Below, in pieces: positions 3,353-38,171 of a stretch of DNA of 42,630 nucleotides. Origin of the DNA: Bacteroidia bacterium (GTDB lineage: Bacteria; Bacteroidota; Bacteroidia; JANWVE01); contig JAVQXK010000001.1 in assembly GCA_033578305.1 (NCBI GenBank), forward strand, positions 1 through 42,630, written 5' to 3'. Each line of letters opens with the position of its first letter. Positions within the stretch are counted from its first letter, which is position 1. The notes under the pieces are model-generated. The model was given only the letters and a program-made list of their open reading frames with translations, ran no database searches and had not been told where the DNA came from. The translations under genes and the position numbers were made by a program.

Positions 3353-3724
3353 TTATTCCCACTTTAATACATCTCTTTTAATAATGTAATAAAAACCCAC
3401 TAAAAGCAGTGCCATAAAAGTAAACATTTCAAAAAAACCGAACCAGCCTAACTCCTTGAAATTTACTGCCCAAGGATACATAAAAATAATCTCTACATCA
3501 AACAAAACAAATAAAATAGCAATCAAAAAGTACTTGATGGAAATCGGTGTGCGCGCATCTCCTATTGACTCTACCCCACATTCCCAGGCTGCATTTTTTA
3601 CTTGACTTCTACGCTTAGGACCAATCAAATGCGTTACCACCATAGTAACAATTACAAATGCCACTGCCAAACCAAATTGAATAATGATAGGCAAGTAATC
3701 AGAAGGAAGATAGGTTTTTTCCAT
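3353..3724 (-). CDS. nuoA: NADH-quinone oxidoreductase subunit A
   Basis: 123 aa, three TM helices, with the NuoA/ND3 signature region PISIKYFLIAILFVLFDVEIIFMYPWAV. It stands alone, far from the other nuo genes. Confidence 0.85.
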   Translation of the reverse strand: MEKTYLPSDYLPIIIQFGLAVAFVIVTMVVTHLIGPKRRSQVKNAAWECGVESIGDARTPISIKYFLIAILFVLFDVEIIFMYPWAVNFKELGWFGFFEMFTFMALLLVGFYYIIKRDVLKWE

Positions 3725-8307: not shown

Positions 8308-10683
8308 TTATTGTTTTACTACTTTTAAGGTAGTGATTGGCTTGCCACCTCCTATAATTTGGATAAAATACACCCCTGTTTTTTGATTTTTGAAAATTTG
8401 ACTAAGATTTTGTGAAGCCTGCTCTTGTGTGCCTTCTGTGTGCTGAATAAGTTGCCCTTGGACATTTTGAATTTTGAAGGCATATTTTTGGTTAGGTTCT
8501 AATCCGTCCAAATGAATGACCTCTGCTATTGGGTTAGGGTAGAGGCTAATTTGAGTGTAATTTTGGGCTTTTTCTACAAATGCCACAGGGCTATATTCGT
8601 AGCTACCGTCAAAGTCAATTTGTTTCAAGCGGTAGTAACCTGCCAAAGGATTGTTTATGTTTAAGGTGTAATTTTTAGGTATATTTGTACTGCCTGCACC
8701 GTCAGCAAAGGCAATTTTGGTAAATTCTTTCAAATCGGGGCTAAATTCTATCTCAAAACCTTTGTTGTTGATTTCTTGGGCGGTTTGCCAAGTGAGGCGA
8801 ACTTCGGGGCTTGTCAGATAAGTTCGCTCTGCTTTGAAACTCAGCAAAGTAATGGGTAATTGGGCATTGCTGTCGTTGCCCAAACTCCAAGAGGAGAAGG
8901 TCGTTTGAGCAGAATTAGTGCAAATAGGAGAACCTAAGCTCGTACAACTTACAGAGGTTGCGATAAATTCCCAGCCTAACATACTTGACCAACGATAGAC
9001 ACGATTTAAGGTAAGGCTATTCGGATTTTCCTCTGCGGTAGGCATACGGAAGCCGATAGTGGTTGGGTTAGCTCCTACGCTTGGGCTACTTAATTGATAG
9101 ACTAAACGAATACCTACCCCATTATTTGCAGTATAATGATAACGACGTACTTGCAAATCGTTGTAACTACCCGCAGAGGTTTGCAAATACACACCTAACC
9201 CTGCAATTTGAGTAGTACCAGTATTGACTGTTCTGCCTGTAGCTTCAATGTAGCCGCCTTTCACGCCTGTGTCCGTAGTGGCAGTTAAATCTTTGATAAG
9301 ATGTTGTGAGGCAATATTTTCGGCGATGCTCCCTGTTGAGCCTAAGGATATGTTAAATCCATTTAGGTTCAAATCACCTTGGATAAGGGTAACTGTACCA
9401 CTTACAGTAATATTCTTATTCAAATTTACACGATTAGCGGCCCCTGTATTGATAATGAGGTTGTTCATAGTAGTTACTCCTGTGGGAAAACCTGCATCTT
9501 GGTTGGCACTTGGGTTATTAAATTCATAGTTTGCTCCTGCATTGTAGGTTTGTGTACCTGAAACGATAATACTTGCCGAAACACCACTTGTATTGGCAGT
9601 GCGAAGAGTTGCTCCTGAACCTAATGTGAAACTGCCTGAGCCTAAAACAACTCCTGTGGTGTTGGTGTTGAGAGTTCCATTCACTGTAATATCTGTACCT
9701 GTGCCATCGTTAGCAGTTAAAGTTACACCATTATTCACGGTTAGCGTACCTCCTGAATTTATAGTAAGTTGGTCAAGTGTAATGTTGTTGGTTACGGTTA
9801 TATTGTGTCCATTTTGTATTTGGATTGCATTAGAAGATATGGAAGGGAAAAAGTTTGCATTATACCAAGTAGAGCCATCAAGAGAGGCTTCCCAAGAGGC
9901 GGTAGCGTTCAAGTTACCTGAGGTTTTACTTCTAAACTGCACATCAAGTGGCTGAATTATTAAGTTATCAAAATTCATTGTACCGACTTCACCTGAAAAA
10001 AGAAATTTAATTTGATTGAGGGGAACTGTACTTGTTGTTACAGAGGCTTCATTAAGTTCTCTTGAAGTTCCAACCCAAACGTCCCATCTGTCGTCAGCAA
10101 CTGTTTCACTTGTACCATCTGGAGCTGAGTAAGTTAAAGTAGCCCCTGAGTTGTTAATTACCCATGTAATGGTTTGTGTACCTGAATATGCGTTGGGTGC
10201 ATTTGTACCTCCAGCTACGTCGCGTAATCTAAATTGATTAGCATTTACAAAGTTAAAAGCGAGGCGTGAATGCACATTTGCATTTGGGGGAGTGGCATTA
10301 TCATTTGTTTGGCTTTGACCCACATACATTGTGGCAGCGCTTGTAGCACTTGCAGTAGTGGTAACATTTAAGTCAAATTGAATATGCAAAGCTGATGGTG
10401 TAGGGCTAAAATTTACATTTCTTACAAAAGCACCTGAATTACCTGTTCTTACAAAATTAAGTGTCCCTGATGAAACGTCAATTGTCATTCCTATACCTGA
10501 TGATGCCAAAGCGGTAAACTGTGTATTATTGGGTGTAGCACTTGCGTACGTACCTGTTGTAACGGTAGAGTTGCTAAAAGAAGCTAGGTTCGTACTAAAA
10601 TCTTGAACTAATAACTGCCCCCAAGCCGTGTTCACGAGCAGAACTAAAACCAAAACCCAAAGACCTTGTAAAAAAGATTTCAT
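8308..10683 (-). CDS. Large secreted protein with beta-helix-like Thr/Asn/Gly-rich repeats and a C-terminal T9SS (Por) sorting domain
   Basis: N-terminal signal peptide. Long runs of TLTVNNGVTLTANDGTGTDITVNGTLN-type repeats. The C-terminus (ISLYPNPIAEVIHLDG...GVYFIQIIGGGKPITTLKVVKQ) is typical of a T9SS C-terminal domain. Confidence 0.75.
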   Translation of the reverse strand: MKSFLQGLWVLVLVLLVNTAWGQLLVQDFSTNLASFSNSTVTTGTYASATPNNTQFTALASSGIGMTIDVSSGTLNFVRTGNSGAFVRNVNFSPTPSALHIQFDLNVTTTASATSAATMYVGQSQTNDNATPPNANVHSRLAFNFVNANQFRLRDVAGGTNAPNAYSGTQTITWVINNSGATLTYSAPDGTSETVADDRWDVWVGTSRELNEASVTTSTVPLNQIKFLFSGEVGTMNFDNLIIQPLDVQFRSKTSGNLNATASWEASLDGSTWYNANFFPSISSNAIQIQNGHNITVTNNITLDQLTINSGGTLTVNNGVTLTANDGTGTDITVNGTLNTNTTGVVLGSGSFTLGSGATLRTANTSGVSASIIVSGTQTYNAGANYEFNNPSANQDAGFPTGVTTMNNLIINTGAANRVNLNKNITVSGTVTLIQGDLNLNGFNISLGSTGSIAENIASQHLIKDLTATTDTGVKGGYIEATGRTVNTGTTQIAGLGVYLQTSAGSYNDLQVRRYHYTANNGVGIRLVYQLSSPSVGANPTTIGFRMPTAEENPNSLTLNRVYRWSSMLGWEFIATSVSCTSLGSPICTNSAQTTFSSWSLGNDSNAQLPITLLSFKAERTYLTSPEVRLTWQTAQEINNKGFEIEFSPDLKEFTKIAFADGAGSTNIPKNYTLNINNPLAGYYRLKQIDFDGSYEYSPVAFVEKAQNYTQISLYPNPIAEVIHLDGLEPNQKYAFKIQNVQGQLIQHTEGTQEQASQNLSQIFKNQKTGVYFIQIIGGGKPITTLKVVKQ

Positions 10684-10941
10684 AAGCCTAACGAAAAAAA
10701 AGGTTGTATAAAAGTATTTTCTTGAAATATTAGCACAAAATTATGGCTTTATGAGGTGTTTTTCGTAAGCAAAAAGTATATTTAACAAAATGATAACTTA
10801 CGTAACATTGGCTTAATGCTTTGGGAATTAAAAAGTATGCTATTAACCGTCATTTTTTTGAGTTTTGTAGTTTAGAGAAGTAGTAAATATTCAAAAAGCG
10901 GTAAGTTTTTTGTTACTTTGTGCGGGTTTTGCATGAAAGGT

Positions 10942-10953
10942 TTATATTTGCAC
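10942..10953 (+). promoter_or_regulatory. Putative -7 promoter box TATATTTGCACG for nuoL
   Basis: Exact TAnnTTTG match, 41 bp upstream of ATG 10994. A TTTG lies 12 bp upstream of it. The same 15-mer GTTTATATTTGCACG recurs at 35892-35906. Confidence 0.5.
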
Positions 10954-10993
10954 GTGAAAAACAATATTTTACCTTTTTAGATAAAGCCTTACT

Positions 10994-12919
10994 ATGAATT
11001 ACAAACTACTAATTAGCCTTATTCCTGCCCTTCCGTTATTAGGTTTTATTCTCAATGGGTTGCTTTTTCGCAAAATTGCCAAGCCGTTGGTGGGCATCAT
11101 TGCGGTAGTTGCTTCGGCAAGTACTTTCATTATTTCGCTTGTGTTGTTCAATGCGTTTATAAGCGGTGGCAGCCAACCTATTACCCTAACTTTGTTTGAT
11201 TGGATTAGCGTAGGGAAATTCAAAATTTCGTTTTCATTTCTTATTGACCAACTTTCGCTCTTAATGCTTTTATTCGTTACGGGTGTAGGTTCACTTATTC
11301 ATATCTACTCTATCGGTTATATGGGCGAAGACGAGGGCTACGGCAAGTTTATGGCTTTTTTGAACTTGTTTATGTTCTCTATGCTTTTGCTCATTTTAGG
11401 CTCAAACTATGTCATAATGTTTATTGGTTGGGAAGGTGTAGGTTTGTGTTCTTATCTTTTAATCGGTTTTTGGAATAAAAATACGGCATACAACTATGCA
11501 GCACGCAAAGCCTTTGTTATGAACCGTATCGGCGATTTGGGCTTTTTGTTGGGCATATTTTTTATCATCCAGCAATTTAATACAGTAGAATACAGCGAAG
11601 TATTTAAGAAAGCGGCAGAGATATTCAAAATGAACGATAGCTTAATGATAGCTATTACGTTGCTGCTTTTTGTTGGGGCAGTGGGTAAATCGGCACAAAT
11701 TCCGCTTTATACTTGGTTACCCGATGCGATGGCGGGTCCTACGCCTGTTTCCGCTTTGATACACGCTGCCACGATGGTTACAGCAGGGATTTACATGGTA
11801 GTGCGTTCTAATGTACTTTATACTTTGGCACCGTTTACGTTGAGTGTAGTGGCAGTTGTTGGCTTGGCAACGGCACTGTTAGCCGCTACGATAGGTATTT
11901 TCCAAAACGATATAAAAAAGGTATTGGCATATTCTACTGTAAGCCAGTTGGGTTATATGTTTTTAGGTTTAGGGGTAATGGCTTATAGCGCGGCATTATT
12001 TCACGTTATTACCCATGCTTTTTTCAAGGCATTGCTTTTTTTGGGTGCAGGAAGTGTAATTCATGCTTTGCACCACGAGCAAGATATTAGAAATATGGGA
12101 GGCTTGGGCAAACATATCAAAATTACATATTTCACCTTTTTTGTTGGTACATTAGCTATTGCAGGTATTCCACCTTTTGCGGGCTTTTTTTCCAAAGATG
12201 AAATTTTGATGCACGTATTTGAAAAAAATACGTTTATGTGGGGGCTTGCCGTTGTGGGTTCTGCCTTAACTTCGTTTTATATGTTTCGCTTGCTTTTCCT
12301 TACTTTTTCGGGCAAATTTAGAGGTACACACGAGCAAGAGCACCATATCCATGAATCACCTTGGGTGATGACTTTGCCCTTAATTATTTTGGCAATTCTT
12401 TCAACAGTGGGTGGTTTTATTGGTATTCCTGCGGTATTTGCTGAAAATGCCAATTGGTTAGGCAATTTTATGAAGCCGTTTTTTGCCTTATCGCAAAAGG
12501 TTAATCCCGCGGCATTTGAGCCCTCGCATTTGAGTCATGCCCAAGAGTTTGGTTTAATGGGCGTTTCGGTAGGGGTTGCTCTTATTTCGTTGGTGTTGGC
12601 ATATATGTTCTTTGTGGCTCAAAAACAGGTGCCACCCGCAGACGAAAAAATGCAAGGCTTTCCCAAGTTGGTCTATCAAAAATATTATGTTGATGAAATT
12701 TATGATTTCTTAATTGTCAGACCCTGTGAATGGCTTTCAGTGAAATTTCACCAATTTGTAGAGGTGTATATAATAGATATGCTTGTTATGCAAGCGGGGA
12801 TTACAGTCAAAGAAATGAGTGATGTACTTCGCTATATTCAGACGGGAAAGGTAGGTTTATATATCTTGGCAATGGTATTAGGGATGGCAGTCATTCTTTT
12901 TGTGCAATTTTTTGGATAG
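10994..12919 (+). CDS. nuoL: NADH-quinone oxidoreductase subunit L
   Basis: 641 aa polytopic membrane protein with ND5/NuoL motifs (WEGVGLCSYLLIGFW, the amphipathic lateral-helix region, etc.). Confidence 0.9.
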   Translation: MNYKLLISLIPALPLLGFILNGLLFRKIAKPLVGIIAVVASASTFIISLVLFNAFISGGSQPITLTLFDWISVGKFKISFSFLIDQLSLLMLLFVTGVGSLIHIYSIGYMGEDEGYGKFMAFLNLFMFSMLLLILGSNYVIMFIGWEGVGLCSYLLIGFWNKNTAYNYAARKAFVMNRIGDLGFLLGIFFIIQQFNTVEYSEVFKKAAEIFKMNDSLMIAITLLLFVGAVGKSAQIPLYTWLPDAMAGPTPVSALIHAATMVTAGIYMVVRSNVLYTLAPFTLSVVAVVGLATALLAATIGIFQNDIKKVLAYSTVSQLGYMFLGLGVMAYSAALFHVITHAFFKALLFLGAGSVIHALHHEQDIRNMGGLGKHIKITYFTFFVGTLAIAGIPPFAGFFSKDEILMHVFEKNTFMWGLAVVGSALTSFYMFRLLFLTFSGKFRGTHEQEHHIHESPWVMTLPLIILAILSTVGGFIGIPAVFAENANWLGNFMKPFFALSQKVNPAAFEPSHLSHAQEFGLMGVSVGVALISLVLAYMFFVAQKQVPPADEKMQGFPKLVYQKYYVDEIYDFLIVRPCEWLSVKFHQFVEVYIIDMLVMQAGITVKEMSDVLRYIQTGKVGLYILAMVLGMAVILFVQFFG

Positions 12920-12946: not shown

Positions 12947-13270
12947 ATGATTACCAAACGCAAAGTACCCAAAAATTTGGTTTATGAAATTGCCGAAGGA
13001 AAACCTATTTTTTACAAAGGCTATAAAGAAGCATTACAAAATAAAAAAAGCATAGAAAATGTAGTGGGTTCAAGTGCTTTGCAAAGTTTTATCATTGGAA
13101 AATTATCAGGATTTTTATGGCAAAAACTTAGCAAAGACTATCAAATTTTTACCAACGAAGTAGGTATTCAATTAGAGAAAAGTACACGTACTTGTAATAT
13201 AGCTATTTTTGAAAAAATACAATTACAAGGCTATGTTTTGCAGGAATTGATAGATTTGCAGAAAAACTAA
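12947..13270 (+). CDS. Short Uma2-family (DUF820-like) putative endonuclease ORF, probably truncated
   Basis: 107 aa. YEIAEGKPIF... and ...CNIAIFEKIQL resemble the N-terminal half of Uma2-family proteins (the YELIDGEL and PDvAvf regions). The C-terminal half is missing. It sits between nuoL and nuoM. Confidence 0.35.
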   Translation: MITKRKVPKNLVYEIAEGKPIFYKGYKEALQNKKSIENVVGSSALQSFIIGKLSGFLWQKLSKDYQIFTNEVGIQLEKSTRTCNIAIFEKIQLQGYVLQELIDLQKN

Positions 13271-13302: not shown

Positions 13303-14745
13303 ATGCTCATTCTTATACTCATTCCGCTCCTTGCGGGAATAATTACCGCCTTTTTGAGAGGTGAAAATGCCAAAAAAATTGCTTTTGGTTTTGCCCTAAC
13401 CGAATTTGCCGTTTCGCTTTACTATGTTGCAAATTTTAATAGCACCCAAGGGCTACAATTTGTTACCAATGTACCTTGGATAAAAACCTTAGGCATCAAT
13501 TTTTACGTAGGTGTAGATGGTATAAGCATTTTGCTAGTACTACTCACTACCTTGTTAGTACCGTTCATTATCCTTTCTACTTGGGGCAAAGACTATAAAA
13601 ATCCTGCCACGTTTTCGGCACTAATTTTATTCATGGAAAGTGCTTTGGTAGGTGTGTTTACGGCACAAGATGCTTTTTTGTATTATCTTTTTTGGGAAGC
13701 AGCCCTGATTCCTGTCTATTTTTTAGCGGCAATTTGGGGCGGAGAAAATCGCATACAAGTTACATTTAAGTTTTTTATTTATACCGTATTCGGTAGCTTG
13801 TTTATGCTTATTTCCTTGATTTACTTGTATTTACAAACTCCACTTCCCCACACAGCTGATATTGCAGCTTATACCAAACTCAACCTCACACCTGAAGTGC
13901 AAAGCTATTTATTTTGGGGCTTGTTTATTGCCTTTGCTATCAAAATGCCGATATTTCCTTTTCATACTTGGCAACCTGACACTTACACTATCGCACCCAC
14001 ACCTGCTACTATGTTGCTCTCGGGCATTATGCTCAAAATGGGGATTTATAGCTTATTTCGTTGGCTTTTACCGATTGTCCCCAAAGGTGTAGAAATGTGG
14101 GCAACTCCTGTTATCATTTTAGCTATTATTGGCATTGTTTATGGGGCAATTATTGCCATTAGGCAACAAGACATGAAACGCTTACTAGCCTACTCGTCTT
14201 TTTCTCACGTAGGACTCATGGCAGCAGGTGTATTTTGCCTCAATGCCCAAGCCTTGCAAGGAGCGTTGGTGCAAATGTTGGCACACGGTATCAATGTAGT
14301 AGGCTTGTTTTATGTAGTAGAATTGATTTACCAACGTACAAATAGCCGACAAATCAACGAATTAGGTGGAATTACCCAAACTACGCCTATTCTTACGGTG
14401 TATTTTACCATTTTACTATTAGGAAGTGTGGCTTTACCTCTTACCAACGGCTTTGTGGGCGAATTTTTGCTACTTTCGGGCTTATTCCAAAAAAATGTTT
14501 GGTTAGCTGCAGTAGCAGGGCTAACAATTATTTTTGGTGCAGTGTATATGCTCAGAATGTTCCAAGGTGTGATGTTTGGTGAAAAAACCGAGCATACCCA
14601 AAATATCAAAGATTTGAGCCTCACCGAAAATTTAGTATTATTGCCCTTGGTAATTTTGGTTTTCTGGATAGGTATGTACCCAAGTACTTTTTTGAATCTA
14701 ACCGAACCCGCAGTACAAGCTATGCTCAAAGCGATTACAAAATAA
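13303..14745 (+). CDS. nuoM: NADH-quinone oxidoreductase subunit M
   Basis: 480 aa polytopic antiporter-like subunit with ND4/NuoM features (FFLAAIWGGENR, FPFHTWQPDTY). Confidence 0.9.
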   Translation: MLILILIPLLAGIITAFLRGENAKKIAFGFALTEFAVSLYYVANFNSTQGLQFVTNVPWIKTLGINFYVGVDGISILLVLLTTLLVPFIILSTWGKDYKNPATFSALILFMESALVGVFTAQDAFLYYLFWEAALIPVYFLAAIWGGENRIQVTFKFFIYTVFGSLFMLISLIYLYLQTPLPHTADIAAYTKLNLTPEVQSYLFWGLFIAFAIKMPIFPFHTWQPDTYTIAPTPATMLLSGIMLKMGIYSLFRWLLPIVPKGVEMWATPVIILAIIGIVYGAIIAIRQQDMKRLLAYSSFSHVGLMAAGVFCLNAQALQGALVQMLAHGINVVGLFYVVELIYQRTNSRQINELGGITQTTPILTVYFTILLLGSVALPLTNGFVGEFLLLSGLFQKNVWLAAVAGLTIIFGAVYMLRMFQGVMFGEKTEHTQNIKDLSLTENLVLLPLVILVFWIGMYPSTFLNLTEPAVQAMLKAITK

Positions 14746-14810: not shown

Positions 14811-16208
14811 ATGCTACCTATCATACTGCTTTCTGTCTTTGGCATTATCAATTTGTTTTTGGGCTTTCTCAAAAATAGAAATATTTTGCTCATAGCCGCT
14901 TTTACTTTTACATTCATTACTTTGGTAGTCAATTTTTTAGATTGGAACAAGCCAATTATTGAATTTGATAAAGCCATTAACAACAACATGATGTCCACAG
15001 ACAACATTTCCATTTTGTTTAGTGGCATTTTGTTGCTGACTACTTTGCTGCTTTTACCCCTTTCACAAAAATATTTAAGTGAAAAAGAAGCACAACCTGC
15101 CGAATACTATGCCATTTTGCTTTTTTCGTTAGTTGGGGCAGTTATGATGGTAAGCTATGAAAATATGCTTATGCTTTTTGTAGGGGTAGAAATTTTGTCA
15201 ATTTCTATGTATGTACTCACGGGAAGCGACAAACGCAACCTTAAATCGAACGAGGCAGCATTGAAATACTTTTTAATGGGTGCTTTTGCCACAGGTTGGC
15301 TCTTATTTGGAATTGCATTTATCTATGGCTCTACGGGTGGGTTTAGCCTTACTGAAATACGAAACTTTGTGGGGGCAGGAGGAATTACAGACAACCTATT
15401 CAAATTAGGGATAGCCATGCTTTTGATAGGAATTTTGTTCAAAGTCTCAGCCGCCCCCTTTCATTTCTGGACACCTGACGTATATGAAGGCGCACCCTCG
15501 TTTTTTACGGCTTTTATGTCCACCATAGTCAAAACAGCAGGTTTTGCGGCATTGTACAAAGTTATCCTCGCTATTACTGCCACCTCTGCGGTGTATAGTT
15601 TTTGGTACTATGCCTTTTGGCTAATTACGGTATTAACTTTACTTATTGGGAATGTAACCGCTGCCTATCAAGACAATTTCAAGCGAATGATGGCTTATTC
15701 TAGTATCTCTCATGCGGGCTATTTGTTACTAGCCGTTCTTTCGTTGGTAGCACGTTCTCAGGAAAGTATTTTGTTTTATTCACTTTCCTATTCTTTGGCT
15801 ACGGTTTCAGCTTTTGGCGTATTGATTTTAGTAACCTATCCTAAAAAATCCGAAAGTTTTGATAGCTTTAATGGTTTAGCCCAAAAAAATCCGTTTTTAG
15901 CCTTTGTCATGACAGTAGCTATGCTTTCTTTGGCAGGAATTCCGCTTACGGCAGGATTTATTGGCAAGTTACAAATCTTTTCAGTAGCCTTTGAACGCGG
16001 TATGTACTCTATGCTTGTGTTTGCAGTGCTCATGTCTTCTGTTGGGATTTATTACTATTTTAAGGTAATTATTGCGATGTATCTTAAAGAAAGCAATAAT
16101 GAAAAAATTGAAGTAAGTACACCCTTTATTTTTACCTTACTAATTACTACCTTGCTGACTATCATCTTAGGTCTATCGCCAGATATATTTTTAGGACTAC
16201 TACGGTAA
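14811..16208 (+). CDS. nuoN: NADH-quinone oxidoreductase subunit N
   Basis: 465 aa. ND2/NuoN-like (FHFWTPDVYEGAP, MAYSSISHAGY). Confidence 0.9.
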   Translation: MLPIILLSVFGIINLFLGFLKNRNILLIAAFTFTFITLVVNFLDWNKPIIEFDKAINNNMMSTDNISILFSGILLLTTLLLLPLSQKYLSEKEAQPAEYYAILLFSLVGAVMMVSYENMLMLFVGVEILSISMYVLTGSDKRNLKSNEAALKYFLMGAFATGWLLFGIAFIYGSTGGFSLTEIRNFVGAGGITDNLFKLGIAMLLIGILFKVSAAPFHFWTPDVYEGAPSFFTAFMSTIVKTAGFAALYKVILAITATSAVYSFWYYAFWLITVLTLLIGNVTAAYQDNFKRMMAYSSISHAGYLLLAVLSLVARSQESILFYSLSYSLATVSAFGVLILVTYPKKSESFDSFNGLAQKNPFLAFVMTVAMLSLAGIPLTAGFIGKLQIFSVAFERGMYSMLVFAVLMSSVGIYYYFKVIIAMYLKESNNEKIEVSTPFIFTLLITTLLTIILGLSPDIFLGLLR

Positions 16209-28908: not shown

Positions 28909-29406
28909 ATGAAACTAACCAACCGAAGTAAACAGGTAAGTAACAAAAAAATGACCTTAGCTGAAAAAATTTACTTACCTGCTATTGTAAACGGATTAGG
29001 AATTACAATAAAGCATTTGTTTAAGAAAAAAGCCACTATTCAATATCCTGAACAGCAACGCCCTATGAGCCAAACCTTTCGAGGCTTGCATGTTCTCAAA
29101 CGTGATGAAGAGGGCAGAGAAAGATGTACTGCCTGTGGCTTGTGTGCTTTAGCCTGCCCTGCAGAAGCAATTACAATGGTTGCCGCAGAGCGTAAACCCG
29201 GCGAAGAGCACCTATACCGAGAGGAGAAGTATGCTGCTGTATATGAAATCAACATGTTACGTTGTATCTTCTGTGGCTTGTGCGAAGAAGCCTGCCCCAA
29301 AGAGGCTATATTTTTGCAAAACAACAAAATGGCACCTGCCTTCTACGAACGCGGTGATGTAATCTACGGAAAAGATAAATTACTAGAACCTATGCCCAAC
29401 AAGTAA
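28909..29406 (+). CDS. nuoI: NADH-quinone oxidoreductase subunit I (2x[4Fe-4S] ferredoxin)
   Basis: Two CxxCxxCxxxCP motifs (CTACGLCALACP, CIFCGLCEEACP) in a protein of NuoI size. A possible alternative start lies at M 28951. It stands alone on the + strand. Confidence 0.85.
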   Translation: MKLTNRSKQVSNKKMTLAEKIYLPAIVNGLGITIKHLFKKKATIQYPEQQRPMSQTFRGLHVLKRDEEGRERCTACGLCALACPAEAITMVAAERKPGEEHLYREEKYAAVYEINMLRCIFCGLCEEACPKEAIFLQNNKMAPAFYERGDVIYGKDKLLEPMPNK

Positions 29407-33965: not shown

Positions 33966-35864
33966 TTAAAATACTACAAAGCGCTCTATCCAAACCTGTT
34001 CCTGACTTTGAACTTTAATTAAATACATACCTTTTGGCAAATTATTTAACAAAATTTCAAATCTATCACCCTCAAAATAAGCAGTTTCTACCAATACATT
34101 ACTCATGTTATAGATGCTTACTTCTTTTCGTAAATTTCGGCTCTGCCTATCGTGAACTATAATCTTGTCAGTGGTAGGATTAGGATATATCTCAAAATCA
34201 GCCGTTTGTAGATTTTCTACCTGCAATACTTCCCAAGAAGAGAAATCCACTGAACCATCAGTATTAACAATTTTTATCCTATAATATTGCGTACCTACCT
34301 GCAGATTTCTATCTGTGAAGCTATACTTTTGCGTAGGGGTAATATTGCCTTCGGCTATCACCTTACCAAAGTTTTCAATTGTTTCTAAATCATAGCTTTT
34401 TTGAACTTCAAAATGACTCACATTTTTGTCTGAACGAGCAGCCCACTGCAAAAGAGCAGTATGATTACTTTGCTGAACCTTAAAATAAGCTAATTCAATT
34501 GGCAAAGGATCTGAAGAAAGTACTAAATGACAATTAACTATGCTACAAGATCCTCCTGCAGTTCCTGTTGAACTACATGAACCATTACAATCCAATCCTG
34601 GATTACCAGGATTGCTTGTTATAATCATATTAGCAGGAACAGGGGTTGTCAATATAATAGCTCCTAAACCACCTCCTCCCCCGCCTCCATGAACAACACT
34701 ATGAACTACATTACCTCCATTTCCACCATTTACACGTACATATAAAGGATTAGCTGCACAAGGTAAATTATAATTATTCACACGTAAAACAACTACTCCA
34801 CCAGCTCCACCACCGCCACCTGCATCAAAACCTGTGGAATGTTCACCAGGGTTACCACTAGCGTCTATGCTATAGCTCGTGGTGCAAGTTGGAGGAATAG
34901 CTAATGTGTTAGCACTAATGAAAATAATACCTCCACCATTGCCACCATTCCCTCCCATACTATTATTTTGTTGACCACCACCACCACCGCCGCCCAAAAA
35001 TAAGCGTTTGGCAGGTGAACTATAATAAGTTTGTAAAGAGATGCCTCCTACCCCTCCATACAAGCCTGATGTACTAAAACCGCAGGCACCATTCCAACCA
35101 TTTCCACCTCTACCTCCTGAAGTGTAGTTTCCACCGCCGCCACCGCCACCATTATGGTCATTTCCACCACCGCCACCATTTACCAAAGCACCTTTGGCAT
35201 ACATATCAGAGGTATAAGCAGTTATACCCTCCCCTTTTTGCCCAAAACCAATATCACTGCTCCTAAATGTAGTTTGGTCAGCACAAGTATTGCGATTGTT
35301 ACTCCTTAAGCCACCCCTAAAACCACGCCCCACAGCAGAGATATTCCCATTCAAAGTAACTGTTCCTGTAGCAGAAAGCACCAATATACCTCCTCTTTCT
35401 AAATTTGTGCTCCAGTCGCGAGCTTGAATACCTGATGCTCCTACAGTCACGTTAGTATATTCAGGTACACTCACAATTTGTACTGAACCACTTACATTGT
35501 ATGTATTCTTTAAAGTCTCTACTTTTATTTGTGAAGAGGTACAAGCACTACAAGATACTACTTTTGTCCACTCAAAAAGTCCTGCACTTTGTATACCATT
35601 CACTACCAAAGTACCATACGTAGCATCGTTAGCTGTATTGATTACTGCTCCTTTCATTTGAATAATCATTATTGTTTTACCTACAGCAAAGTCGGCTGTA
35701 CTCGTACCACCAGTAGGATCTATTACATTGTCAAAAGTAAGTATTTTATTAGGTACATCAATAGCTGTTACCCTTGCATATGTGTTAATAATACCTGATA
35801 TAGTTTGAGAAAAACTCCTACTTAGTGAAATAAAAAGTACAACAAAAAATAGTATTTTTTTCAT
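33966..35864 (-). CDS. Glycine-rich secreted protein with a T9SS C-terminal sorting domain
   Basis: Signal peptide. A central region of about 170 aa is dominated by poly-Gly/Asn tracts (GGGGGNDHNGGGGGGGNYTSGGRGGNGWNG, LFLGGGGGGGQQNNSMGGNGGNGGG, VHGGGGGGGLG). The C-terminus (FEIYPNPTTDKIIVHD...MYLIKVQSQEQVWIERFVVF) resembles a T9SS C-terminal domain. Confidence 0.7.
   Translation of the reverse strand: MKKILFFVVLFISLSRSFSQTISGIINTYARVTAIDVPNKILTFDNVIDPTGGTSTADFAVGKTIMIIQMKGAVINTANDATYGTLVVNGIQSAGLFEWTKVVSCSACTSSQIKVETLKNTYNVSGSVQIVSVPEYTNVTVGASGIQARDWSTNLERGGILVLSATGTVTLNGNISAVGRGFRGGLRSNNRNTCADQTTFRSSDIGFGQKGEGITAYTSDMYAKGALVNGGGGGNDHNGGGGGGGNYTSGGRGGNGWNGACGFSTSGLYGGVGGISLQTYYSSPAKRLFLGGGGGGGQQNNSMGGNGGNGGGIIFISANTLAIPPTCTTSYSIDASGNPGEHSTGFDAGGGGGAGGVVVLRVNNYNLPCAANPLYVRVNGGNGGNVVHSVVHGGGGGGGLGAIILTTPVPANMIITSNPGNPGLDCNGSCSSTGTAGGSCSIVNCHLVLSSDPLPIELAYFKVQQSNHTALLQWAARSDKNVSHFEVQKSYDLETIENFGKVIAEGNITPTQKYSFTDRNLQVGTQYYRIKIVNTDGSVDFSSWEVLQVENLQTADFEIYPNPTTDKIIVHDRQSRNLRKEVSIYNMSNVLVETAYFEGDRFEILLNNLPKGMYLIKVQSQEQVWIERFVVF
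34665..35182 (-). repeat. Low-complexity GGN-codon tracts encoding the poly-Gly region of the T9SS cargo protein
   Basis: The + strand shows repeated CCACCGCCGCCACC-type runs. Homopolymeric codon repeats like these are prone to slippage. Confidence 0.7.
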
Positions 35865-36113: not shown

Positions 36114-37163
36114 TCATTTCTCAAATTTACTTTTAGTTACCTTATTCACTATTGCTGATTTTTCTAATGGAAGTTTAGAAGGTCGATGCTCATCATCAAT
36201 TTTTTTATATTGTGCTTCGGCTTGTCTAAAACCAAAATCAGGAACTAGTTTGTGTACTTTATGATTCTGAGCAATTACTGAGGTACGTTTAATATTAGCA
36301 TTTCCTTCAATTATCCAGTCAGAAGTTTTTTTCTTCTCAAAGCGGCAGGTATTACAAATGAAATCTTTTACTTCCCCATATTCATCCTTGCGTGCAGTAA
36401 CACGAAGCACCTCTGAACCTTGGTACCAAAGTATAACCTCTCCTTTACATTTATCACAATTTCGGTGAGCATTTACAGGTTTCGTAAACCAAACTCTACT
36501 CTTAAATCGGAAGGTTTTATCAGTTAAAGCTCCTACGGGACAGACATCTATTACATTTCCTGAAAAGTCGTTATTAATCACATTTTCAATATAGGTACCA
36601 ATCTCAGCAGCATCACCTCGTTTAAGAACTCCATGAACACGCTTATCTGTGATTTGATCTGCTACATAAACACAACGATAGCATAAAATACAGCGCGTCA
36701 TGTGAAGCTGTATTTTATCCCCAATATCTATTTTTTCAAAAGTTCTACGCTCTTCTTCATATCTTGTCCCTGAAACGCCGTGTTGGTAGCTAAGATCTTG
36801 TAAATGGCATTCACCTGCCTGGTCGCAAATAGGACAATCCAACGGATGGTTAATAAGTAAAAATTCTACCACTCCTCTACGCGCCTCTAATACTTCTTCA
36901 TTGATAGAATTTTCTACTACCATACCATCCTGCACAGCAGTAATACACGAAGGTACAAGTTTAGGCATTGGACGCGGATCCTTTGCAGAACTCTGCGTTA
37001 CTTTTACCAAGCAAGTACGGCATTTTCCACCACTTCCCTGTAGTTTAGAGTAATAACACATAGCAGGTGGTACGATATTGCCACCAATCATGCGAGCAGC
37101 TTGTAAAATAGTAGTACCTTGTGGGACATCTATTTGTATATTATCAATAGTTACTTTCAGCAT
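36114..37163 (-). CDS. nuoG: NADH-quinone oxidoreductase subunit G (short form lacking the molybdopterin-like C-terminal domain)
   Basis: N-terminal 2Fe-2S motif (C..GKCRTC), the His-ligated cluster HPLDCPICDQAGEC, a 4Fe-4S motif CILCYRCVYV, and CPVGALT. 349 aa. Confidence 0.8.
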   Translation of the reverse strand: MLKVTIDNIQIDVPQGTTILQAARMIGGNIVPPAMCYYSKLQGSGGKCRTCLVKVTQSSAKDPRPMPKLVPSCITAVQDGMVVENSINEEVLEARRGVVEFLLINHPLDCPICDQAGECHLQDLSYQHGVSGTRYEEERRTFEKIDIGDKIQLHMTRCILCYRCVYVADQITDKRVHGVLKRGDAAEIGTYIENVINNDFSGNVIDVCPVGALTDKTFRFKSRVWFTKPVNAHRNCDKCKGEVILWYQGSEVLRVTARKDEYGEVKDFICNTCRFEKKKTSDWIIEGNANIKRTSVIAQNHKVHKLVPDFGFRQAEAQYKKIDDEHRPSKLPLEKSAIVNKVTKSKFEK

Positions 37164-37242
37164 AAGTATTAGGTTATTAGGGTTTGAATTATCTTCTTAT
37201 TTTTATTTCATATATTAGGTTTCTTTCAAAAAAAGGTTCAAA

Positions 37243-37461
37243 TCATATTAATTGCCTCGCTCCAAGAAGGCTGTTTTGTAATTTCTCCTCATTTTTTAGT
37301 ATATTTTTGCCATACTTGCGTTTTATATTTATATATAAGAATCCTTCCCAAATTTCATAGTCTCGCACAACTTCTTGCAATTTCTCAAAATCCTTTTTCT
37401 CCGCTGCCGAAGTTTTTACTTCTAAATTTTCGTGTGTAACGTTATTAAATAAAAAGAACAT
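37243..37461 (-). CDS. Hypothetical 72-aa protein in the slot where nuoF would be expected
   Basis: ORF MFFLFNNVTHENLEVKTSAAEKKDFEKLQ... with no recognisable similarity to NuoF. Coding status uncertain. Confidence 0.25.
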   Translation of the reverse strand: MFFLFNNVTHENLEVKTSAAEKKDFEKLQEVVRDYEIWEGFLYINIKRKYGKNILKNEEKLQNSLLGARQLI

Positions 37462-37628
37462 CAGGAGTAGGGCTTAACCTTTGTTTCATCTACCATCATT
37501 TCAGACAAGGGTTCAAAAGGAATTTTTCCTTGTCTATATAGCCAATCCGACCGTGCTATCAACTTGCGTATTACTCGTTGATGCTCTTTGGGAGCATTTA
37601 CTCCCGTTACCATTACGTCTAACATAAA

Positions 37629-38171
37629 CTAAATCCATTCAGTAGCTATCAATTCGTCAATTTTAGCAGGAGTAAGGTTTTCATAGTATTTGTAAGCTCC
37701 GTCCATACTTTTCAATTTTACTTGCAGGCAGGGGGCTCCCCCACACGCTGCTAAACATTCTACGGTTTTGAGAGTAAAGCGTTTATCAGGAGTAGTTTCG
37801 TTTACATGAATACCTAACTTCTGTTCCAAATACTCAAGAATTTCATCTGCCCCACAAATCATACATGGTCCTGTACGACAAACTTCTAATACATATTTGC
37901 CCACAGGTTCAAGGTGAAACATGGTGTAAAAGGTAGCCACTTCGTACACCTCAATTGGTTGGATATTTAGGAGCTCGGCTATGTAATCCATTACATTCAC
38001 ACTAATCCAACCGAATTGAGTTTGAGCGATGTGTAAGATAGGCAATATAGCCGATTTTTGCTTGCCCTCTGGGTAGCGTTTAATAATTTCTTGTACTTTA
38101 GCAAGATTCTCTTCTGTAAACTTTGCTCCCACGTGGTAGCTCCTGTCAGTATTAAAACGATAAGCAGACAT
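37629..38171 (-). CDS. nuoE: NADH-quinone oxidoreductase subunit E (24-kDa, 2Fe-2S)
   Basis: 180 aa with the four Cys arranged CRTGPCMICG...CLAACGGAPC typical of NuoE. Confidence 0.85.
   Translation of the reverse strand: MSAYRFNTDRSYHVGAKFTEENLAKVQEIIKRYPEGKQKSAILPILHIAQTQFGWISVNVMDYIAELLNIQPIEVYEVATFYTMFHLEPVGKYVLEVCRTGPCMICGADEILEYLEQKLGIHVNETTPDKRFTLKTVECLAACGGAPCLQVKLKSMDGAYKYYENLTPAKIDELIATEWI

Follow-up and report, generated by a model that had tools for sequence, protein, structure and literature searches.

Where is nuoF, and what lies in its place? The question is raised by a stretch of 42,630 nt from a Bacteroidia bacterium (assembly GCA_033578305.1, contig JAVQXK010000001.1, positions 1 to 42,630), hereafter the window, in which Pfam identifies 13 of the 14 nuo genes of complex I, with nuoF alone missing. 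The canonical order in relatives is B-C-D-E-F-G-H-I; in the window, 465 bp separate nuoE from nuoG. The initial annotation of this junction saw in the gap a 72-amino-acid (aa) open reading frame (ORF), which it took for an orphan occupying the place of NuoF, and it left two alternatives, that nuoF had been relocated or that the complex uses a different electron-input partner. Judged from its sequence, the interval holds no working gene, and what lies there is a full-length but dead gene of a nuclease-like family. That this relic is all that remains at the junction of an arrangement from which nuoF was removed during operon fragmentation, with nuoF kept elsewhere in the genome, is the reading that we consider probable.

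The interval between nuoE and nuoG

The absence of nuoF from the junction, as initially annotated, was confirmed. Searches by tblastn with the Pfam-verified NuoF of a relative (E ≤ 10) found no NuoF-like sequence in the interval or in the whole window, and six-frame translation, tblastn, and Pfam found no NuoF remnant in positions 37164–37628, so that the frameshifted NuoF considered at the outset as an alternative is not what the interval contains. Bounded by the last base of the nuoE stop codon (37629) and the nuoG start codon (37163), the interval is also too small for nuoF, which measures ~1.34 kb in relatives. NuoE and NuoG are present and intact, as had been stated, according to Pfam, alignment to solved structures, and their iron–sulfur (Fe-S) ligand motifs. 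The interval contains two same-strand ORFs rather than the single one reported: orf54 (54 aa), which begins 3 nt past nuoE, and orf72 (72 aa), which overlaps it by 1 nt. Neither matches any Pfam family, including PF01512 (FMN/NADH-binding), SLBB, and PF10589 (N3 4Fe-4S), in agreement with the earlier view that the 72-aa ORF lacks NuoF features. No Rfam families, sigma-70 promoters, terminators, or repeats were found above chance in positions 36900–37900.

With the consensus of a short Uma2-like (DUF820) family as query, tblastn showed that the interval is colinear with family residues 1–137 in five frame segments joined by four frame changes, with segment E-values from 4e-24 to 5e-8 and a short YDLNxF tail (Table 1). 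In total, four frameshifts and one in-frame stop fall within 410 nt, in addition to a three-codon deletion in the core strand and many changes at otherwise invariant C-terminal residues (W108, F124, C125). The third and fourth frameshifts lie near 37338 and 37248. Because five frame segments with a stop codon are needed to cover residues 1–137, the window copy is a pseudogene and not a working member of the family. The 72-aa ORF is therefore not an orphan but comes from the middle of a Uma2-like nuclease gene that has decayed, and orf54 is the beginning of this gene: the two match residues 1–54 and 72–123 of one intact 138-aa protein that is encoded 3' of nuoE in four relatives (L011, L013, L032, and L078). 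Translational coupling of orf54 and orf72 through their TGATG overlap was considered and rejected, as the overlap is an accident of the frameshifts.

The junction has been recovered more than once. Exact-sequence matching found identical NuoG, orf54, and NuoE proteins in two NCBI metagenome-assembled genomes (MAGs) named "Bacteroidia bacterium"; in the second MAG, on a 106.6-kb contig, the three are consecutive accessions (MDW8300839 to MDW8300841), and its annotation contains no call for orf72. In addition, a Logan contig from run SRR15826902 (L182), which begins inside orf72 and includes the spacer as well as nuoG, has 0 mismatches to the window over its 11.3 kb and so confirms the adjacency of the relic and nuoG independently.

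A short Uma2-like family in nuo operons

The family to which the relic belongs comprises 78 clusters at 90% identity and carries the JGI label "Uma2 family endonuclease". Its relation to Pfam Uma2 (PF05685) is distant at the level of sequence: at E ≤ 0.01, Pfam recognises Uma2 in 16 of 46 family members (best 9e-7), precomputed matches exist for a few distant members, the closest intact orthologs score 19.4–20.2 bits against a gathering threshold of 27 bits, and the ORFs of the window have no match. The fold was assigned on the model of an intact ortholog (P0159) and not on the window copy. This AlphaFold2 model (mean confidence, pLDDT, of 92.4) was matched by Foldseek to PDB 3IJM with a template-modelling (TM) score of 0.84, 46% identity, and 1.8e-14, and further to 6OKH, 9Y1L, 1WDJ, and 3OT2, so the family is predicted from this model to have a restriction-endonuclease-like alpha/beta fold of the PD-(D/E)XK type. 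The invariant residues D56, E72, and K85 are compatible with an active site; neither the short family nor Uma2/DUF820 is known to act as a nuclease. The short family shows no flavin, NAD, or Fe-S features.

In relatives of the window organism, the intact gene does not take the place of nuoF but coexists with it, in the order nuoE-uma2-nuoF-nuoG, so the 72-aa ORF cannot be said to occupy the place of NuoF. An intact gene of 137–138 aa lies between nuoE and nuoF in Emticicia (L011, L013, L032) and Arcicella (L078), and Runella has a complete nuoA-B-C-D-E-x-F-G-H-I-J cluster in which x is an intact short Uma2-like gene. The nuoA-J clusters of L093 and L094, with the gene at this place, and of L089, with a relic there, are complete as well. 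Altogether, a family gene stands between nuoE and nuoF in L011, L013, L032, L078, L084–L087, L093, and L094, and as a relic in L089. The window copy has nuoE upstream like these but is followed by nuoG and not by nuoF. More distant homologs (46–50% identity) are found outside nuo operons, and therefore the nuo position is not a defining property of the wider family.

Small genes of this and other kinds were seen in further nuo spacers. In L089, from a Xanthocytophaga-like sister lineage, the successive spacers E|F, F|G, and G|H each contain a short Uma2 relic, so that the nuoF of this locus is bracketed by direct repeats of the 3' end of the gene. A full-length Uma2 protein of 197 aa is encoded between nuoD and nuoE in L176 (8471–9064) and L177; in L176, the nuo cluster ends past nuoF, where mutL lies on the opposite strand. 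We also observed a HicB-like antitoxin gene between nuoD and nuoE (L170, 2324–2536), two small ORFs (76 and 115 aa) in an F|G spacer that by eye are putatively toxin–antitoxin-like (L093, 9414–9991), and a zeta-toxin-like/AAA_33 gene between nuoL and nuoM (L174, 17384–18148).

The fate of nuoF

Are NuoE and NuoG still in use? NuoE aligns with NDUFV2/Nqo2 and keeps the C-x4-C and C-x3-C ligands, and NuoG aligns with NDUFS1 (the 75-kDa subunit) with the motifs of clusters N1b, N5, and N4 intact. Against relatives, non-synonymous divergence (dN) is 0.14–0.19 for nuoE and 0.14–0.22 for nuoE and nuoG together; synonymous divergence (dS) is saturated, and dN/dS is ~0.07 in the one pair for which it could be estimated. 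Low dN and intact ligands argue that both proteins are functional. In the NADH-oxidising N-module, NuoE has no known role without NuoF, and it follows that NuoF should be encoded somewhere. Most likely, then, the organism continues to assemble the NADH-oxidising module and takes its NuoF from a gene at another place in the genome.

The arrangement of nuo genes in relatives is in keeping with this. A scan of one genome per species with NuoE gave 80 loci, onto which the proteins of the window were mapped. Among these, 72 are more distant from the window; nuoF lies directly 3' of nuoE in 70 of them, and the contigs of the other two end just past nuoE. In the eight species closest by NuoE (66–81% identity), which are Raineya sp., Thermonemataceae, Bernardetiaceae, and other Cytophagales, nuoE is solitary throughout, and no further nuo gene is present within 10 kb of it. 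Raineya, Thermonema, and Bernardetia are relatives of the window lineage. The closest metagenomic NuoG (L088, 80% identity) is likewise encoded by a solitary gene. A solitary nuoF (P0257) was found on contig L173, between an outer-membrane-protein gene and a gene on the opposite strand; in a neighbour-joining tree of NuoF, it is the long-branched sister of the clade of L108 and L089, the clade nearest to the window, and the taxonomic origin of L173 is read from this tree alone. Solitary N-module genes thus occur among the closest relatives of the window. Separately, nuoG was seen without an upstream nuoF within 1.5–10 kb in further lineages, on the metagenome contigs L117, L122, L159, and L090, followed by nuoH-I-J in the first three, and the separation of nuoF and nuoG is therefore not unique to the clade of the window. 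With regard to isolates, an NADH dehydrogenase is reported in the description of Raineya orbicola, which notes no subunit as missing; for the genome of Thermonema rossianum, the same paper states that NuoE and NuoG were not found while the rest of the NADH dehydrogenase was present (PMC5982127). In view of the solitary, scattered N-module genes described here, this second gap may be due to dispersal or to a draft assembly and not to loss.

Of the two alternatives initially proposed, we favour relocation because the 13 nuo genes of the window are scattered, solitary nuoE, nuoG, and nuoF genes exist in relatives, and both NuoE and NuoG, intact as they are, show purifying selection. Taken by itself, the relocation of nuoF in the window organism is likely; a different electron-input partner finds no positive support. 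The relic stops 51 nt before nuoG, whereas in intact relatives the uma2 stop lies 4–22 nt before the start of nuoF, and thus nuoF appears to have been removed cleanly, with nothing else disturbed. We would place the excision within the ~50 nt between the relic and nuoG, as one of several rearrangements that would have broken up the nuo operon in this lineage. Speculatively, direct repeats of Uma2 relics flanking nuoF, such as those in L089, would allow homologous recombination to delete nuoF, and such a deletion would leave a single colinear hybrid Uma2 copy beside nuoG, which is the architecture of the window. We infer both the retention of nuoF elsewhere and this possible route of excision. 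The 51-nt spacer was also considered as a scar of the 5' end of nuoF, on the basis of a 10-nt match (AATAAAAATA) to the nuoF start of L013; the match is AT-rich and of low complexity, is not significant, and was rejected.

Several observations weigh against this reading. Of the 14 nuo genes, the window contains all but nuoF, and the ~53 kb of contig that were examined yielded no nuoF. Past the right end of the window, the MAG contig carries SpoIIE, GH57, response regulators, an esterase, and MCP, and no nuoF; on the left, the Logan contigs reach no further than the first position of the window. A search with an Emticicia-type NuoF returned no nuoF of the window organism among its best 120 matches, which were filled by Spirosomataceae (at least 86% identity), and none of the best 120 matches to the NuoF of L108, the Xanthocytophaga-like genome with the nearest complete cluster, which extended down to 81% identity, was traced to the MAGs. 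The accessions of 20 NuoF clusters included none from either MAG (MCS702…, MDW830…), and the genomic contexts of P0209, P0212, P0255, and P0257 were all in other samples. A regression on 102 loci predicted that the NuoF of the window would be ~84% identical to the query, which would place it inside the best 120 matches. The purifying selection on nuoE and nuoG spans the whole divergence from relatives and not the time since nuoF left the junction. Finally, 257 nt (37378–37634) fall between two Logan contigs of SRR15826902, whose ends lie at 37635 and 37377; these nucleotides hold orf54 and the first two frameshifts, and the link between nuoE and orf54 rests on the two MAG assemblies. The gap could be due to strain polymorphism, a repeat, or low coverage. 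The argument from the regression is weak, and the failure to detect nuoF is given little weight, because the NuoF of cultured relatives is also not among the best 120 matches, none of which is named for Raineya, Thermonema, or Bernardetia isolates. Amino-acid composition (FYMINK/GARP) was tried as a means to pick the NuoF of the MAG and was not discriminating.

If nuoF were truly lost, the organism would have a 13-subunit complex I with NuoE and NuoG and either another electron donor or an unrelated flavoprotein partner. The empty searches, the prediction that a match should have been visible, and the variable N-module gene content of the clade, as in Thermonema rossianum, would agree with such a loss. 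However, it would leave NuoE without a known role despite kept cluster ligands and low dN in both subunits; solitary nuoE, nuoG, and nuoF genes are normal in the clade and the MAGs are incomplete; the matches listed also fail to include NuoF from cultured relatives in which the enzyme has been reported; and Pfam scans found no candidate replacement flavoprotein beside the nuo genes of the window. We regard true loss as unlikely. More improbable still is an artefact of assembly or binning, in which the true order would be nuoE-uma2-nuoF-nuoG and nuoF would have been dropped by a mis-join across a repeated uma2. The Logan breaks do flank the 5' two-thirds of the relic, and L089 shows that a single genome may have Uma2 relics in several of its nuo spacers, but L182 independently runs from the 3' end of the relic through the 51-nt spacer into nuoG with no nuoF, the two MAGs have the same gene order on contigs of 51.5 and 106.6 kb with consecutive accessions, and the relic is colinear from residue 1 to 137.

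A related doubt concerns the decay and not the junction. Were the frameshifts sequencing errors, the interval would encode an intact 137-aa Uma2-like protein and nuoF would still be absent, and two of the shifts do lie in homopolymer-type runs. Against this stand four frameshifts and a stop crowded into 410 nt, next to 13 nuo genes that are intact, as is every long ORF, and also the three-codon core-strand deletion, the changes at W108, F124, and C125, and the same truncated orf54 in two MAGs. We hold this to be very improbable. It is hardly credible that orf54 and orf72 are functional and replace NuoF or adapt the N-module in the manner of Campylobacter and Helicobacter. Two small adjacent ORFs at the right place, 3 nt past nuoE and with a 1-nt overlap, would suggest as much, yet they are fragments of one nuclease-fold gene, whose invariant PD motif must be read in a third frame; for its C-terminal third, two more frames are needed, and a stop codon interrupts it. 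Moreover, relatives have intact orthologs together with nuoF, more distant homologs are not associated with nuo genes, the family lacks flavin, NAD, and Fe-S features, and orf72 is not called in the second MAG. We therefore return to removal of nuoF during operon fragmentation, with a dead nuclease gene left at the junction, as the reading to be preferred.

The split nuo cluster and comparison with known systems

The 13 nuo genes of the window lie in six blocks on both strands, spread over 38 kb (3353–41783) in the order A, L-x-M-N, K-J, I, G-psi-E-D-C-B-H (psi, the relic), and are interleaved with GH31, GlgB-like, GlgE-like, CheA/CheB-like, MFS, and type IX secretion system (T9SS)-cargo genes. 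Such fragmentation is unusual for a nuo cluster, although its genes have stayed loosely together. The nuoH-B-C-D-E-psi-G block is probably a single transcript, and a hairpin just past nuoG is likely, from its sequence, to be its terminator. Between nuoL and nuoM, orf107 resembles the N-terminal half of a Uma2-type protein by eye and was considered as a second relic; BLAST and Pfam gave no support, and the candidate was rejected. We also note a 632-aa T9SS-tailed protein with long glycine runs (GGGGGG…) at 33966–35864 on the minus strand, where the local GC content is 0.49 with a strongly negative GC skew, against a window average of 36%.

Table 1. Coordinates of the relic, its parts, and the nuo genes. 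Positions are those of the window, except for the three relics of contig L089.
Feature	Position	Strand	Evidence or remark
Pseudogene of a ~137-aa short Uma2/DUF820 (3IJM-like) gene	37215..37625	-	tblastn with family consensus
Segment 1	37625-37470	-	residues 1-53, 68% identity
Segment 2	37474-37454	-	SPTPDVL; invariant PD motif, in a frame translated by neither ORF
Segment 3	37452-37340	-	residues 60-101; 3-codon deletion
Segment 4	37336-37250	-	residues 100-128, E=5e-8; in-frame stop
Segment 5	37247-37215	-	YDLNLFLKET*
orf54	37461..37625	-	N-terminal pseudogene fragment, closed by the first frameshift; identical protein annotated in two NCBI MAGs
orf72	37243..37461	-	first ~40 codons in the true frame (residues ~60-101); remainder is out-of-frame read-through
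Zone of the first two frameshifts	37449..37490	-	one in an A-rich run (GAAACAAAGG), one in a T5 run (CTTTTTATTT)
In-frame stop	37289..37291	-	segment 4, …YTKK*GEIT…
Spacer, 51 nt	37164..37214	-	pseudogene end to nuoG ATG; expected nuoF site (~1.34 kb in relatives) within
nuoA, isolated	3353..3724	-	Pfam PF00507, 3e-36
nuoL	10994-12919	+	Pfam
orf107, 107 aa, between nuoL and nuoM	12947-13270	+	no family or BLAST match
nuoM	13303-14745	+	Pfam
nuoN	14811-16208	+	Pfam
nuoK	24424-24101	-	Pfam (nuoJ/nuoK pair: PF00499, PF00420)
nuoJ	25011-24460	-	Pfam (nuoJ/nuoK pair: PF00499, PF00420)
nuoI (2x[4Fe-4S] ferredoxin), isolated	28909..29406	+	Pfam Fer4 families; 65-78% identity to the gene 3' of nuoH in relatives
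Hairpin, perfect 13-bp inverted repeat, 4-nt loop	36058..36087		27 nt past nuoG stop
nuoG, short Bacteroidota form, 349 aa	36114..37163	-	Fer2_4, NADH-G_4Fe-4S_3, Fer4_Nqo3
nuoE, 180 aa, 24-kDa subunit	37629..38171	-	Pfam PF01257, 1e-54
nuoD	39484-38222	-	Pfam
nuoC	40033-39527	-	Pfam
nuoB	40653-40102	-	Pfam
nuoH	41783-40752	-	Pfam; moved ahead of nuoB
L089 E|F relic	8384-8548		internally deleted copy
L089 F|G relic	9913-9945		"IGYDLNDFVQ*" directly past nuoF
L089 G|H relic	10865-11289		decayed, most of the gene covered

The nuo operon is among the most conserved bacterial gene clusters, and a clade in which all 14 nuo genes are separating, with 13 of them still within 38 kb in the window, offers a natural case for the study of operon break-up, a process that implies a promoter of its own for each piece. 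What looked like an orphan replacing NuoF is resolved into a dead gene of a selfish-type nuclease, and the missing nuoF fits a break-up of the operon across the lineage. The repeated occurrence of small nuclease-like and toxin–antitoxin genes in the nuo spacers of Cytophagales suggests hitchhikers that exploit, and perhaps destabilise, highly expressed operons; small Uma2-like genes in these spacers may supply the repeats or breaks by which single nuo genes are excised, and so drive fragmentation. If true loss were proved after all, a complex I with NuoE and NuoG but without NuoF would be unprecedented, as it would have an N-module without the FMN/NADH site that takes its electrons from another partner, with NuoE and NuoG kept under selection.

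Set beside known systems, the locus offers nothing new in kind: it combines a split nuo cluster with a pseudogene whose fold family is known. PDB 3IJM, a structural-genomics entry from Spirosoma linguale named "restriction endonuclease-like fold superfamily protein", belongs to the same small family of ~140-aa single-domain proteins from Cytophagales, from which the window copy differs in being a pseudogene with four frameshifts and one stop. Typical Uma2/DUF820 proteins (PF05685; Thermus TT1808, PDB 1WDJ; Anabaena Ava_3926, PDB 3OT2) share the fold and are linked to the short family by weak Pfam matches, whereas the short family is ~50 residues shorter and most of its members fall below the Pfam gathering cut-off. 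Compared with the canonical 14-gene nuoA-N operon of Cytophagales and Flavobacteriales, the window has the same 13 orthologs (53–90% identity) and the same short NuoG, but it lacks nuoF, is split into six blocks on both strands, and has nuoH before nuoB. In Campylobacter and Helicobacter, two unrelated genes stand in for nuoE and nuoF of complex I, which receives its electrons from flavodoxin. The window resembles this epsilonproteobacterial form in having two small non-Nuo ORFs at the position of an N-module gene, but it keeps an intact nuoE, and its ORFs are pieces of a pseudogene with nothing to suggest function. The 11-subunit complex I-like enzymes without NuoEFG, for example in Bacteroides fragilis (PMC5982127), are likewise cases of a Bacteroidota complex I without nuoF in the cluster; in these enzymes all three N-module genes are gone, whereas NuoE and NuoG of the window are intact and conserved.

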